Positions 2,124-33,779 of a stretch of DNA of 64,000 nt are shown here, piece by piece. The position numbers and the translations under genes are program-made. The stretch lies in NCBI RefSeq assembly GCF_056712565.1, contig NZ_CM160072.1; one strand, given 5' to 3'. The stretch's first letter is position 1; each line of letters starts with the position of its first letter. Under the pieces are notes generated by a model. That model did no database searches, was not told where the DNA came from, and was given only the letters and a program-made list of their open reading frames with translations.

Positions 2124-2213
2124 TTATCACATAAAAGCCGCATTGTTAATATTGCCAGGAGTCTGATTATGACTTTCGGTAACTCAGAATTGAAAGAAGC
2201 AGCGTAGCAGGCG

Positions 2214-2246
2214 TAAAAAAGCCATTATGTGCGACTCACATAATGG
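2214..2246 (-). terminator. Rho-independent terminator downstream of ychF (11-bp stem gccattatgtg/cacataatggc, U-run on minus strand)
   Basis: aaaaaa + perfect hairpin on plus strand = hairpin + TTTTTT on minus strand, just 3' of ychF stop. Confidence 0.6.
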
Positions 2247-2278
2247 CTCGTTATTAACCGCCAGGATATTACGCGGAA

Positions 2279-3370
2279 TTAGACGTTGAACAGGAAGTTC
2301 ATCACATCGCCATCTTTAACGATGTAATCTTTGCCTTCTGCACGCATTTTGCCTGCTTCTTTCGCGCCTTGTTCACCTTTGTAAGTGATGAAATCTTCAA
2401 ACGAGATGGTTTGTGCACGGATAAAGCCTTTTTCAAAATCAGTATGGATTTTGCCCGCTGCCTGCGGCGCGGTTGCACCAACCGGAATGGTCCATGCACG
2501 CACTTCTTTCACCCCAGCGGTGAAGTAAGTTTGCAGGTTCAGCAGCTTATAACCGGCACGGATCACACGGTTCAGGCCCGGCTCTTCCAGCCCAAGCTCC
2601 TGCATAAACTCGTCACGCTCTTCGTCGTCCAGTTCGGCAATGTCTGCTTCAACAGCAGCACAAACCGGAACTACAACAGAACCTTCTTTCGCTGCGATTT
2701 CACGCACCTGGTCAAGATACGGGTTGTTTTCAAAACCGTCTTCGTTGACGTTGGCGATGTACATTGTTGGTTTTAGCGTCAGGAAGCTCAGGTAACGAAC
2801 AGCCGCTTTCTCTTCAGCGCTTAAATCCAGCGCACGCAGCATACCTGCGTTTTCCAGCTGGGGCAGGCATTTTTCCAGTACCGCCAGCTCGGCTTTCGCG
2901 TCTTTATCGCCACCTTTGGCTTTCTTCTGTACGCGATGAATCGCACGTTCACAGGTGTCGAGATCCGCCAGCGCCAGTTCGGTGTTGATAACTTCAATAT
3001 CATCCGCCGGGTTAACTTTGCCGGAAACGTGAATGATGTTGTCATTTTCAAAGCAGCGAACAACGTGACCGATCGCTTCGGTTTCACGGATGTTGGTCAG
3101 GAACTGGTTACCCAGACCTTCGCCTTTCGATGCGCCTTTTACCAGACCGGCGATATCGACAAATTCCATGGTCGTGGGAAGTGTACGCTGCGGTTTCACG
3201 ATTTCAGCCAGTTGATCCAGGCGAGGGTCAGGCATTGGTACGACGCCAGTGTTCGGCTCGATGGTGCAGAATGGAAAGTTGGCCGCTTCAATACCGGCTT
3301 TGGTCAGCGCGTTGAACAGGGTAGATTTCCCGACGTTGGGCAAACCGACGATACCGCATTTGAATCCCAT
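2279..3370 (-). CDS. ychF: Ribosome-binding ATPase YchF (Obg-family GTPase/ATPase)
   Basis: 363-aa ORF; P-loop [12 protein letters not shown] domain; length and sequence match E. coli YchF. Confidence 0.95.
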
Positions 3371-29508: not shown

Positions 29509-30215
29509 TCGAACTCGTGATTGTATCGCGTCTCCTTGAATATCCGGATGCTGCCTTATGGCAGCATCAACAAGAGATGTTTGAGGCGATTGCCGCGTCG
29601 AAAAATCTGCCAAAAGAGGATGCCCATGCGCTGGGCATTTTCCTGCGCGATTTAACGACGATGGATCCGCTCGATGCCCAGGCGCAGTACAGCGAACTGT
29701 TCGACCGTGGCCGCGCCACGTCACTGTTGCTATTTGAACATGTTCACGGTGAATCCCGTGACCGCGGCCAGGCGATGGTGGATCTGCTGGCGCAGTACGA
29801 GCAGCACGGCTTGCAGTTAAACAGCCGCGAATTGCCCGACCATCTGCCGCTGTATCTGGAGTACCTGGCGCAGCTGCCGCAAAGCGAAGCCGTGGAGGGT
29901 TTGAAAGATATTGCGCCGATTCTGGCATTGCTGAGCGCGCGTCTGCAACAGCGTGAAAGCCGTTATGCCGTGCTGTTTGATCTGCTGCTGAAACTGGCGA
30001 ATACCGCAATCGACAGCGACAAAGTGGCGGAAAAAATTGCCGACGAAGCGCGCGACGATACGCCGCAGGCGCTGGATGCAGTCTGGGAAGAAGAGCAGGT
30101 TAAATTCTTTGCTGACAAAGGCTGCGGTGATTCAGCAATCACTGCTCATCAGCGTCGCTTTGCCGGTGCCGTCGCGCCGCAATATCTGAATATCACCACC
30201 GGAGGACAGCACTAA
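29505..30215 (+). CDS. narJ: Nitrate reductase assembly chaperone NarJ
   Basis: 236-aa ORF; overlapping start. Confidence 0.95.
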
Positions 30216-30892
30216 TGCAATTCCTGAATATGTTCTTCTTTGATATCTACCCGTACATAGCCGGGGCGGTCTTCCTGATTGGTAGCTGGCTGCGTTATGA
30301 CTACGGGCAGTACACATGGCGTGCGGCGTCCAGCCAGATGCTGGATCGCAAAGGGATGAACCTCGCGTCGAACCTGTTCCATATCGGTATTCTGGGGATT
30401 TTTGTCGGTCACTTCTTCGGTATGCTGACGCCGCACTGGATGTATGAAGCCTGGCTGCCGATTGAAGTGAAACAGAAAATGGCGATGTTTGCTGGTGGTG
30501 CCAGCGGCGTACTGTGTCTGATTGGTGGCGTGCTGTTGCTGAAGCGTCGTCTGTTCAGCCCACGCGTGCGTGCAACCACTACCGGAGCGGATATCCTGAT
30601 CCTGTCGCTGCTCGTTATCCAGTGCGCGCTGGGCTTGCTGACCATTCCGTTCTCAGCCCAGCATATGGACGGTAGCGAGATGATGAAACTGGTTGGCTGG
30701 GCGCAGTCGGTAGTGACCTTCCACGGTGGTGCTTCTCAACACCTTGATGGTGTGGCGTTTATCTTCCGTCTGCACCTGGTGTTGGGGATGACGTTATTCC
30801 TGCTGTTCCCGTTCTCGCGTCTGGTGCACATCTGGAGCGTCCCGGTGGAGTATCTGACGCGTAAGTATCAGCTGGTGCGCGCTCGTCACTAA
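30215..30892 (+). CDS. narI: Nitrate reductase A gamma subunit (cytochrome b)
   Basis: 225-aa membrane ORF; start overlaps narJ stop. Confidence 0.95.
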
Positions 30893-30920
30893 GCGAATTT
30901 TAGTTCACATAGACCCTGCT

Positions 30921-32245
30921 TCGGCGCTGAGGGATCCCCATAAATCAGCGATAATAAACCAACACCATATTCTGGTAGGTTCTGGTGAGGTGATTAAGAA
31001 TGGTGCTTAGCACCGTTCGTTTTAAAATTAGCGGGGAGTGTCGTAAGACATTCTCCGCTAACGTCAGATACGAGATTACCCGCCGCGTTTTAATGCTGTT
31101 GGCCTGATATCTAAGATGTAACCCTTGATTTTCAGCGTGATAGCCAATAAGCCACAGCACTATTGTGCTCAGTGTTGCCAGCAGGCTCAGTACCAGCATT
31201 CTTCCTGCCGAACAGCTGTAACTGGCTCGCAGACCGAACCCAAAACGCTCACTTTTTTCATCCCTGAAGTTTTGCTCAATCTGCATTCGGCGGCTGTATA
31301 ACTTCATGATTTCTCGCGGTTTAAAGTCATCTGTGCTGCTGAATATTAACCATGGTTCTTTTGCCGCCGACCTGGCATCTTTTATCTGTGATGGTCTGGC
31401 TATACCACAACGCGAACGTTTATTTCTCCGGCCTTTCGGCTCTTTTTTGTGCAAATAAAAATGACCATCGCAACGGGCGTATTCCGCCCGGGAAAGCGTC
31501 CCCGGCCCCAGATATTCAGGTTTGTTACTGGCCTGTAATTCCTGACGCCTGAACCAGCATTCCCCTTTTCTCGCCAGATGCAGTTGTTTATTGCCTCGTA
31601 TCCGGCCAATAAAATCCCAGCCGAGTGATTTTATGTGCCGAAACCAGGCATTCTGGAACCCTGCATCCGTGACGATGATTACCCTTGCTTTTGGGTTTAC
31701 CGCTTCGGAAAGAGTATTAAGAAAGGCTTGCTGTATCTTTGCATTTTGCTGTTTTTCCGAAGGAACTATCCAACTCAGCAATGGAATCGAATGTCCATAG
31801 CAAATCAGGCTGGCGCGGAGTACGTGATACTCCTGAGAGGGGTATCCACTCCAGTCAACGGCGATGACACACAGTGACAGCTTGCTCGTCAGCATGGAAA
31901 TAATGTTTCTGAAAATCAGGGGGATGTCGTGATGAAGAGACTCATTACCGAGCAGACGATCAACACGTTTTATTTTATTTTTGACCTGAGCATTACCGGG
32001 TAAATAACGTCCGATGCTGGTCAGCGTCAGAGATGCGCCATTGATTAGTGCGATAGTGGCATCCAACAAAGCATTTTGTCGGTATTTGTGAAATGGTGCT
32101 AAAGCACCGCGGAAAAAATTCTGACATACTTGGCGAGCAGGCATAGAGGAGATCTCATTGAATTGGTTGCACAAGTCAGTAGATCACAAAACTCTATGCC
32201 TGTCTTTTTTTACCCGCCCATTACTGGGGATTCCTCAGCGCTCCG
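30921..32245 (-). mobile_element. IS186-like insertion sequence (IS4 family), about 1.32 kb; boundaries approximate (+/- 15 bp)
   Basis: Single DDE-transposase ORF flanked by near-perfect 17-bp inverted repeats GCGCTGAGG(G/A)ATCCCCA at 30924-30940 and 32226-32242; size fits IS186 (about 1.34 kb). Confidence 0.65.
30945..32174 (-). CDS. IS4-family (IS186-like) DDE transposase
   Basis: 409-aa ORF; DDE-type features (VIIVTDAGF) and YREK-like signature (YSRRMQIEQNFRDEK); stop codon 5 bp inside the left IR. Confidence 0.75.
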   Translation of the reverse strand: MCNQFNEISSMPARQVCQNFFRGALAPFHKYRQNALLDATIALINGASLTLTSIGRYLPGNAQVKNKIKRVDRLLGNESLHHDIPLIFRNIISMLTSKLSLCVIAVDWSGYPSQEYHVLRASLICYGHSIPLLSWIVPSEKQQNAKIQQAFLNTLSEAVNPKARVIIVTDAGFQNAWFRHIKSLGWDFIGRIRGNKQLHLARKGECWFRRQELQASNKPEYLGPGTLSRAEYARCDGHFYLHKKEPKGRRNKRSRCGIARPSQIKDARSAAKEPWLIFSSTDDFKPREIMKLYSRRMQIEQNFRDEKSERFGFGLRASYSCSAGRMLVLSLLATLSTIVLWLIGYHAENQGLHLRYQANSIKTRRVISYLTLAENVLRHSPLILKRTVLSTILNHLTRTYQNMVLVYYR

Positions 32246-32256
32246 GCGGGTTTTTT

Positions 32257-32574
32257 TTATGGGCACGGTGCGGGGGGAGTTGTCGGATGCGCTTCGCTTA
32301 TCCGACCTACAGGGGAGGATATTTTAGGTCCGGTAAACGCGGTGCCATTGGGCAGAATTAGCTCGGAGTAACAGGTTTTGAGTATTTCAGGAAGAAATGG
32401 TGGTGGGGGAAGGATTACTCAGCGCTGCGCGCTTCGCCCTACGGGTCGTTGCCTGCGGCAACGCTCTCTCGCTGGCCTCGAGTCGAACCTTGGTCGAAGC
32501 TTCTCATCCTTCCCCGCATGGGCAGAATATTTAATTGCGGATTCGTTTGAGAATTCAGGGGCTTTTGTAAGCGA
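32257..32574 (-). repeat. tyrT-distal repeat region (rtT/tpr-like); diverged about 178-bp units each beginning with a tRNA-Tyr 3'-end-like segment
   Basis: tggtggtgggggaaggatt (tRNA 3' end) recurs at 32396-32416 as ggtggtgggggaaggatta; a minus-strand reading frame ends ..[19 protein letters not shown] (arginine-rich, protamine-like tpr-type tail). Confidence 0.5.
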
Positions 32575-32659
<85 letters not shown>

Positions 32660-32692
32660 AGGGGTAATTCATATTGTAGGTAATGCTTGAGA

Positions 32693-32777
<85 letters not shown>

Positions 32778-32827
32778 ACGGGGTAATGCTTTTTACTGGC
32801 CTGCTCCCTTATCGGGAAGCGGGGCGC

Positions 32828-32856
32828 ATCATATCAAATGACGCGCCGCTGTAAAG
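32828..32856 (-). promoter_or_regulatory. tyrT promoter (-35 TTTACA, -10 TATGATG, GC-rich discriminator GCGCCCCGC)
   Basis: Minus strand reads ...ACACTTTACAGCGGCGCGTCATTTGATATGATGCGCCCCGCTTCCC..., the classical stringently controlled tyrT promoter, about 41 nt upstream of the tRNA 5' end. Confidence 0.85.
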
Positions 32857-32936
32857 TGTTACGTTGAGAAAAATGAACTGGTTGCGTGATTTTCATCCGT
32901 AACGGATTAAAGCTAACCAGTTATTTTGGCTGACGA

Positions 32937-33779
32937 TTAAAGAATAATCGTCCGATTACCGTAAACAAAGACGCGCTGCGCCAGTACTTTGTATAGCGCA
33001 CGACTTAAGACGTTTTTCTCGACGTCACGACCTGCGCGCATCATATCTTCAGCTGTGTAGGTATGATCGACATGAATAACGTCCTGCATGATGATTGGGC
33101 CTTCGTCCAGATTGTCATTCACATAGTGAGCGGTTGCGCCAATAATCTTCACGCCACGCTCATAGGCCTGGTGATAAGGACGTGCGCCGATAAACGCTGG
33201 CAGGAATGAATGGTGAATATTGATGATCTTATTCGGGAAGCGTGCCACAAATTCCGGCGTTAATACCCGCATATACTTCGCCAGCACCACATAGTCAGGT
33301 TGATAAGCATCAATGGCATCCGCCATCTTTTGATCGTGCTCGTTGCGGCTTAACCCTTCATGGCTTACCAGCTCAAACGGAATATCAAACCGCTCAACCA
33401 GAGAACGTAAAGTATCGTGGTTACCAATAACTGCCGCGATTTCGACATCCAGGCCGCCGTAATTGGCTTTCATCAACAAATCGCCAAGGCAATGCGCTTC
33501 TTTAGTGACCAGAATTACTATCCGGCGACGACCGGCAGGATTCAGCTCACGCACGGAGCCTTCTGGCAATGCGCTATCGAGATCCGCCAGCAGGGTGGAA
33601 TCATTAAAAATCCCTTCCAGTTCCGTGCGCATAAAAAAGCGCCCGGTACGATGATCTACAAATTCATTGTTCTGCACGATATTTAACTCGTGCTTGTAGC
33701 AAATATTGGTAATACGTGCGATCAGACCTTTTTGGTCCGGACAAATAGTACGCAGAACTTTACGTTGGAGTGAATGCAT
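32937..33779 (-). CDS. purU: Formyltetrahydrofolate deformylase
   Basis: 280-aa ORF with ACT domain and formyltransferase core. Confidence 0.95.
   Translation of the reverse strand: MHSLQRKVLRTICPDQKGLIARITNICYKHELNIVQNNEFVDHRTGRFFMRTELEGIFNDSTLLADLDSALPEGSVRELNPAGRRRIVILVTKEAHCLGDLLMKANYGGLDVEIAAVIGNHDTLRSLVERFDIPFELVSHEGLSRNEHDQKMADAIDAYQPDYVVLAKYMRVLTPEFVARFPNKIINIHHSFLPAFIGARPYHQAYERGVKIIGATAHYVNDNLDEGPIIMQDVIHVDHTYTAEDMMRAGRDVEKNVLSRALYKVLAQRVFVYGNRTIIL

Follow-up and report, generated by a model that had tools for sequence, protein, structure and literature searches.

At this locus the window, by which we mean the whole stretch of DNA analysed (64,000 nucleotides), is 100% identical to Escherichia coli UTI89, S88 and APEC O1. 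The last gene of narGHJI, narI, occupies positions 30215-30892 on the plus strand, according to the list of open reading frames (ORFs) and to the RefSeq annotation of the identical UTI89 DNA. To its right lie an insertion sequence (IS), an RtT unit (32398-32528; Rfam RF00391, 129 bits) and the tRNA-Tyr genes tyrV and tyrT (32575-32659 and 32693-32777; ARAGORN and Rfam). The RtT unit, the two tRNA genes and purU, found beyond them, are all on the minus strand. The extra DNA between narI and the tyrT-distal region is an IS of the IS4 family; it encodes a DDE transposase and is bounded by terminal inverted repeats.

The boundaries of the element were fixed by comparison with empty sites and with the ends of IS10. 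E. coli K-12 MG1655, AR_0017 and A20, the last two being IS-free genomes close to the window, carry the identical uninterrupted site GACCCTGCTTCGGCGGGGTTTTTTTATGGG, and the DNA found on either side of the element is contiguous in all three. The initial annotation stated that K-12 has no IS here, and the narI-tyrT intervals of K-12 and of the IS-free B2 strains indeed hold the intact site. The extra DNA opens with CTGAGGGATCCCC at 30927 and closes with GGGGATTCCTCAG at 32238, which delimits an element of 1312 bp (30927-32238) with its transposase gene on the minus strand and a terminal CTGAG.RATCCCC identical to IS10 ends. Its first base lies 34 nt past the narI stop codon, in agreement with the insertion about 30 bp downstream of narI originally reported. 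The span first given to it, 30893-32260, proved too wide, as the comparison with empty sites assigns 34 nt on the left (30893-30926) and 22 nt on the right (32239-32260) to the host. An imperfect 27-nt inverted repeat brackets the ORF (30924-30950 / 32215-32241). Within the element, the left terminal repeat (30927-30950, plus strand, CTGAGGGATCCCC...) is on the transposase 3' side and corresponds to the IS10 inside end, while the right one (32215-32238, minus strand, CTGAGGAATCCCC...) is on the 5' side and corresponds to the outside end; they agree at 12 of the 13 terminal bp and at 19 of the first 24. The inverted repeats seen at the outset are thus present, but not at their proposed length of 17 bp, since 4 nt of it are flank.

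The same unit, with a length of 1310-1313 bp, recurs in unrelated surroundings in Salmonella, Klebsiella, Pantoea and others. The three bases adjoining the IS vary with the target across these relatives (GGG, CTG, CCG, CCA) and are therefore host DNA, outside the IS. Judged from these alignments, the right boundary is unambiguous; the ambiguity suspected earlier disappears, as the empty sites are contiguous and the nearest RtT unit begins about 160 bp further right. Two other delimitations, both of which would require termini different from CTGAGG...CCTCAG, were tried and rejected. Ends reading GCG...CGC with a 4-6-bp duplication were discarded because the flanking triplets vary and follow the local target (loci L014, L021, L052, L058, L060 and L099). 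The other, in which the duplication has 9 bp and the right end gains a terminal C, suits the window and L091 at the cost of asymmetric ends, but it fails at L099, where CCTCAG directly adjoins a clean duplication of 9 bp.

The empty site of K-12 forms a hairpin, with arms CCCTGC and GCGGGG around a TTCG loop and with U7 after it (free energy -15.6 kcal/mol, z score -3.0). It is therefore the intrinsic narGHJI terminator, and the loop of this hairpin is where the element lies. The left copy of the target duplication (TGCTTCGGCG, 30917-30926) has the sequence that K-12, A20 and AR_0017 show at their empty sites; it comprises the TTCG loop, preceded by the innermost 3 bp of the 5' arm and followed by the 3 nt with which the 3' arm begins. 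The right copy (CGCTCCGGCG, 32239-32248) mismatches it at 32239 and 32243, and an additional G>T change is found beyond it at 32251. The window thus has a 10-bp duplication that is imperfect (8/10); its length lies within the range of about 9-13 bp typical of the IS4 family. In strain Z1323CEC0015, which carries the same insertion, the right flank reads CGCTTCGGCGGGGT7 instead of CGCTCCGGCGGGT8 and the right copy is CGCTTCGGCG, with a single mismatch (9/10). A target-site duplication had been proposed as a check of the insertion: it exists, but in neither strain is it exact, and a search of complete E. coli genomes for a perfect one returned none, the closest match having two mismatches. Because Z1323CEC0015 has a single mismatch, the two extra changes of the UTI89-type flank are most simply read as post-insertion mutations. 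The T>C change at 32239, shared by both flanks, converts TGC/GCG arms into the perfectly complementary pair CGC/GCG, as quasi-palindrome (template-switch) correction would produce.

These flanks bear on an alternative, namely that the element came by recombination together with flanking DNA of a donor, the odd right flank CGCTCCGGCGGGT8 being imported terminator DNA. Three substitutions do fall within 13 bp of the right end in a region otherwise about 99% identical, and the left flank of a relative in Kosakonia oryziphila, CCCCGCTCCGGCG, matches the right-flank allele of the window. However, the right flank of Z1323CEC0015 is one base away from the host site, which argues for stepwise mutation after insertion, the 32239 change could be explained by quasi-palindrome correction, and the DNA downstream is native E. 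coli sequence. We consider an imported flank unlikely and favour direct insertion into the terminator loop followed by mutation of the right flank.

An effect on narI termination had been considered possible, and the narI terminator is indeed affected: the element splits its hairpin. The left junction retains no more of the nar terminator than its 5' arm and loop, lacks a U-run and folds with a z score of -0.2. With this terminator lost, transcription of nar is expected to continue into the IS, antisense to the transposase gene, and the transcripts would probably extend by 1.3 kb. Read-through may end at an internal stem followed by a T-run (32138-32211) or at a terminator-like hybrid hairpin that spans the right junction (32212-32258, plus strand). 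In this hairpin, ACCCGCC of the IS (32212-32218) pairs with GGCGGGT of the host (32245-32251) ahead of T8 (32251-32258), with a fold of -20.4 kcal/mol and a z score of -2.0, and relatives keep ACCCGCC, or a one-base variant, at the corresponding position. The tyrT-distal region is untouched by the insertion.

Among the complete genomes of E. coli, 5426 in number, about 345 contain the element with its flanks, and the median is one copy per genome. In the 65 contigs read, the exact protein and its commonest variant occurred in the nar-purU context only. All near-identical copies inspected (≥97% identical) were at narI, although a few E. coli genomes have a second place that may represent a rare extra copy; other E. 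coli sites hold only degraded relatives (82-88% identity). Plasmid copies in PLSDB (100% and 99.6%) were rejected as independent sites because they carry narGHJI-purU, that is the same chromosomal locus. Near-identical copies at more than one site were sought in E. coli as a sign of mobility and none was seen among the copies inspected. Carrier strains are closely related and their IS are 99.6-100% identical, while many B2 strains and all other E. coli are without the element. From this sequence record it looks like one old insertion, vertically inherited and not visibly mobile in E. coli. By homology with IS10, the element would move by cut-and-paste with its DDE transposase.

A single copy at a fixed site, with an intact ORF in hundreds of genomes, could also be a domesticated one, kept by the host for instance as a terminator or regulator between the nar and tyrT operons. 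The terminator re-formed at the right junction, and the two flank changes that lengthen its stem and T-run, point the same way. Yet the intact ORF needs no selection to be explained, since the carriers are so closely related; a frameshifted copy exists in one of them, SCU-485, and the many B2 strains and all other E. coli without a copy do well to be counted against a host function, which we regard as very improbable. We therefore retain, with a probability of about 0.88, the reading that this is one intact copy of an unnamed IS10-group (IS4-family) IS, inserted once in the loop of the narGHJI terminator and inherited vertically since then in a subset of phylogroup-B2 E. coli. The IS is genuine but of an ordinary kind, and it is fixed in a sub-lineage of B2. 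It can serve as a lineage marker of the B2 sub-group that includes UTI89, S88 and APEC O1, and carries little weight for the window itself.

The likeness noted initially between the right inverted repeat and the start of the RtT repeat is real: GGATTNCTCAGCGCT occurs in the 64-kb window only at 32228-32242 and 32412-32426, where 0.01 occurrences are expected. This 15-mer, with 14 specified bases, is common to the right junction and to the RtT unit, where the look-alike reads GGATTACTCAGCGCT. It had suggested insertion into a repeat unit, or recombination with one, which would make the right boundary of the element a hybrid. Against this, the host DNA is collinear with IS-free genomes through the terminator and a REP-like palindrome up to the RtT unit, the flanks being contiguous in K-12, A20 and AR_0017, and these IS-free genomes carry the same RtT sequence. 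Moreover, 11 of the shared bases belong to the conserved IS end, present in other species too, and the AATCC of RtT goes back to the 3' end of the tRNA. Both an older repeat (spacer) unit of K-12, GGATTATTCGTCGCT, and the Rfam RtT consensus differ at the CTGAG positions. We give a hybrid origin hardly any credence and regard the likeness as a coincidence, incompletely explained and without bearing on the boundary of an element inserted in the nar terminator.

The assignment to the IS10 group was based on the transposase and on the ends. The minus-strand ORF has 1230 nt (30945-32174); its ATG form in UTI89, from 32144 to 30945, is annotated in RefSeq as "IS4 family transposase" (399 aa, WP_001111620.1). 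The IS4-family assignment made at first sight is upheld by the Pfam domain DDE_Tnp_1 (PF01609, E 8e-17). With the IS10 transposase, for which the sequence from R478 was used, BLASTP gave 36% identity end to end across 368 residues (E 8e-70). The catalytic triad D97/D160/E290 lies opposite D97/D161/E292 of IS10 and the YREK motif is complete, Y283/R286/K297 lying opposite Y285/R288/K299. The NCBIfam model NF033591 scored 344 bits with the window transposase and 404 bits with IS10; on NF033592, InsL of IS186 reached 133 bits and the window transposase 39.7, under the cut-off of 115. Each end of the element agrees at 11 of 13 positions with the biochemically defined IS10 ends (CTGATGAATCCCC and, for the inside end, CTGAGAGATCCCC), both beginning with CTGAGG. 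The length of 1312 bp and these ends fit the IS10 subgroup, described as 1200-1350 bp with 5'-CT ends and 9-bp direct repeats (De Palmenaer et al., PMC2266710, Table 1).

Placement in the IS186/IS421 group, as first proposed, has next to no chance of being right: both transposases are IS4-family DDE enzymes with YREK, and their best BLASTP match is a local one of 27 residues around that motif (K-12 InsL, E 0.059), but nothing is similar past it, the two proteins fall on different NCBIfam models and the ends CTGAG..ATCCCC are those of IS10. On these protein and end comparisons, "IS186-like" is wrong below the family level. A search of PDB sequences with the transposase found no relative, the Tn5 transposase being too distant for phmmer. 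As to a name, cluster members and RefSeq offer "IS4 family transposase" only. The generic IS4 annotation was thus already in RefSeq; new here are the correction of the sub-family to IS10-like and the fixing of the boundaries.

The element also shares with IS10 the design of its start-codon region. Perfect 11-bp arms (32138-32148 / 32192-32202) flank 43 nt with GATC at 32151-32154 and 32182-32185, and the first arm contains the transposase ATG (32144-32142, minus strand). On the plus strand, the stem is followed by TCTTTTTTT (also given as UCUUUUUUU). The antisense (plus) strand folds with -31.6 kcal/mol (z -4.0) and the sense strand with -36.9 kcal/mol (z -3.5), the start codon being buried in the latter. 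In 12 relatives, 98% of the stem cells pair, compared to 31-45% in slid controls. Two pairs change on both sides, from G-C to A-U in Salmonella indica and from A-U to C-G in Serratia, a compensatory result matched by 2 of 500 shuffles. This comparison shows that the stem over the start codon is conserved. A further Dam site, GATC at 30933-30936, occupies in the transposase-distal end the position it has in the IS10 inside end, and there is none in the other end. IS10 has the same inverted-repeat design around its own AUG, and there the repeat forms the RNA-OUT stem and the fold-back structure. By analogy, the start-codon stem together with the Dam sites (two in the stem, the third in the transposase-distal end) may hold down transposase expression, in that read-through transcripts would be inhibited by fold-back and perhaps also by an antisense RNA. 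An Rfam scan of 30700-32950 (E-value threshold) returned the RtT unit and the two tRNAs, and no RNA-OUT or other IS-related RNA. The promoter scan gave no promoter-like site inside the IS; the lone one, at 32348-32321 on the minus strand, is within chance expectation. An antisense RNA from the element is for these reasons kept as only an analogy.

In order to describe the relatives, the left-end 18-mer was scanned against species-representative genomes (70 loci) and viral contigs (16 loci), and plasmid searches added more. Identity to the window element is 94-95% in Citrobacter sp. NCU1, 91% in Salmonella indica pSARC14-41, 84-85% in Klebsiella, E. coli plasmids and Pluralibacter, 82% in Pantoea, 77% in Edwardsiella, 74% in Serratia and 68% in Izhakiella. 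Escherichia sp. MOD1-EC7003 has at least 22 copies at contig ends and a collapsed 1315-bp contig whose coverage is about 28-fold that of its other contigs; with some 28 copies, the family is therefore active there.

Most flank data come from left flanks. They place the relatives of other Enterobacterales mostly in GC-rich hairpins that resemble terminators. In 35 of 51 distinct left flanks, a triplet complementary to the three bases at the flank's end lies 3-8 nt upstream of them, whereas shuffles yielded such a complementary arm in 3.9 flanks on average and in 11 at most (1000 shuffles). The spacer is 4 nt in 24 of those flanks, and GCG ends 36/51 left flanks, a typical one being AAAAAACCCCGC-CGAA-GCG followed by the IS. 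This preference is absent (2/19) from a Pseudoalteromonas element whose terminal 18-mer is the same. A-runs precede 29/67 left flanks and T-runs follow 13/20 right flanks, which gives many of the sites the character of a terminator; the samples are too small for a claim that insertions are biased in orientation towards the terminator T-run. Among complete copies, perfect 10-bp repeats with the pattern CGC-N4-GCG flank five independent insertions, one insertion in a bidirectional terminator has the 12-bp repeat CGC-TATTAA-GCG, and one non-hairpin insertion, in a Yersinia plasmid, has a 9-bp repeat. Most relatives thus have 10 bp, compared to the 9 bp given for the IS10 group (PMC2266710).

These flanks suggest a clade with a preference for GC-rich stem-loops of the type CC-CGC-N4-6-GCG-GG. 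Joining 3 bp into each arm would produce a duplication of 3 bp plus loop plus 3 bp, usually 10 bp. We tentatively propose, at slightly less than even odds, that this enterobacterial clade of the IS10 group selects hairpins of the rho-independent-terminator type by their symmetry or structure and inserts 3 bp into each arm. The length of the duplication would then track that of the loop (10 bp for 4-nt loops, 12 bp for the 6-nt loop and 9 bp at the non-hairpin site), a link resting on seven complete cases, and ACCCGCC would pair with the GGCGGG arm of the host, re-forming a terminator. The literature search gave no paper on the element or on terminator-targeting IS10 relatives, and hairpin targeting, undescribed in the literature searched, is a modest new lead. 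If true, an IS10 relative with terminator hairpins as targets and duplications of variable length would offer a convenient natural system for how an IS4-family transposase reads target symmetry or structure, and could show how an IS finds "safe" intergenic sites.

Among known systems, the closest is IS10 (IS10R of Tn10; ISVsa5 in RefSeq annotation), with which the element shares the NCBIfam model, 36% transposase identity over the full length and aligned DDE and YREK residues. Its length is similar (1312 bp compared to 1329 bp), as are its ends, CTGAG(G)(G/A)ATCCCC here and CTGA(T/G)(G/A)(A/G)ATCCCC in IS10. Both have GATC in the transposase-distal end only, an inverted repeat at the start codon with strong folds on both strands, and a symmetric target preference. 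They differ in that protein identity is only 36%, that the window element has no Rfam RNA-OUT match, that the duplication is 9 bp in IS10 and usually 10 bp (range 9-12) in the window clade, and that the target is NGCTNAGCN in IS10 and a GC-rich hairpin CGC-N4-6-GCG in the window clade. Unlike IS10 of Tn10, the element is outside any composite transposon here.

IS186/IS421 (insL of K-12) and the window element are both IS4-family members if the family is taken broadly. The targets that IS186 prefers are GC-rich and symmetric, and its duplications vary in length. It differs by the lack of transposase similarity past the YREK motif, by its NCBIfam model and by its ends. IS231A, another IS4-family member, targets GGG(N)5CCC, and with the window clade it has in common symmetric GC half-sites, a variable spacer and a variable duplication length; however, it belongs to another subgroup (CA ends, compared to CT ends here) and the polarity of its half-sites is opposite. 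Its duplications are of 10-12 bp (PMC2266710, Table 1).

Palindromes are also targeted by other elements. IS1397 and ISKpn1 insert in extragenic palindromes. ISRm22, of the IS4 family, and ISPpu9 do the same (PMC1525189, PMC12288879). All of these resemble the window clade in using the loop or stem of small, GC-rich intergenic hairpins, so that genes are spared. Most of them have transposases of other families, and they target a repeated REP/BIME family, whereas the hairpins entered here are unrelated and terminator-like, sharing only arms of the CCCGC/GCGGG type.

Compared with the mutually identical empty sites of K-12, A20 and AR_0017, in which the narI terminator hairpin is uninterrupted, the window carries three substitutions within the 13 bp adjoining the right end of the IS (32239-32251), namely two T>C changes, at 32239 and 32243, and a G>T change at 32251. 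The first gives the hairpin arms full complementarity, and the last provides an additional A-U pair and one extra T to the hybrid terminator predicted at this junction (32212-32258). In the right flank of Z1323CEC0015, an E. coli strain with the same insertion, only T>C at 32239 was found among these three changes.

The 15-mer GGATTNCTCAGCGCT is present both at the right junction of the IS (32228-32242) and in the RtT unit distal to tyrT (32412-32426). It occurs nowhere else in the 64 kb, for 0.01 occurrences expected. The match is probably due to chance, aided by the tRNA-derived AATCC, an explanation that is still incomplete. The tyrT region itself (32398-32777) is far shorter than in K-12 (2210-3123 of the K-12 locus L002): it comprises one RtT unit and two tRNA-Tyr genes separated by a 33-nt spacer, whereas K-12 has three distal RtT units and a further one between its tRNA-Tyr genes. 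The number of tRNA-Tyr genes is one in AR_0017 and SCU-485 and three in Z1323CEC0015. A REP-like palindrome at 32283-32312, TGTCGGATGCGCTTCGCTTATCCGACCTAC, separates the nar terminator from the RtT unit and is found in K-12 as well.

Two PLSDB records labelled as E. coli plasmids, NZ_CP082081.1 and NZ_AP026904.1 (retrieved loci L003 and L004), contain narGHJI, the IS, purU, ychJ and rssA in chromosomal order and look like pieces of chromosome entered as plasmids. Non-B2 E. coli (loci L006-L009) harbour degraded relatives of the IS, 82-88% identical and frameshifted or truncated, at other island-like sites; that of E. coli M1 (L006) adjoins torI and dsdC and is still bordered by a perfect 10-bp duplication, CGCTACGGCG. 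The Salmonella indica plasmid pSARC14-41 (L005, 6001-11133) bears two copies of a 91% relative, the second of them truncated, which enclose a C69 dipeptidase gene in inverted orientation to each other, their flanks being duplicated in inverted form as well; these flanks are also present in Citrobacter sp. NCU1 (L088). The terminal 18-mer of the IS, CTGAGGGATCCCCATAAA, also occurs identically on about 19 contig ends of Pseudoalteromonas sp. S16_S37 (L027-L045), with AT-rich, non-hairpin flanks; this element appears to be a different IS with a terminal repeat in common.

Three plasmids provided outliers to the usual 10-bp target duplication, which spans 3 bp, a 4-nt loop and 3 bp of a hairpin. 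We observed a clean 9-bp non-hairpin duplication, GACAAAGCT, in Y. frederiksenii (L099), a 12-bp duplication at a terminator with a 6-nt loop in K. michiganensis (L017) and one copy devoid of any duplication in K. pneumoniae (L014). Escherichia sp. MOD1-EC7003 (L066-L087, L085) possesses a relative of 85% identity in about 28 copies, with at least 22 contig ends and a collapsed 1315-bp contig that has a coverage of 3095, compared to about 110 for the other contigs. Nearly all the left flanks of this relative are CCCGC-loop-GCG hairpins.
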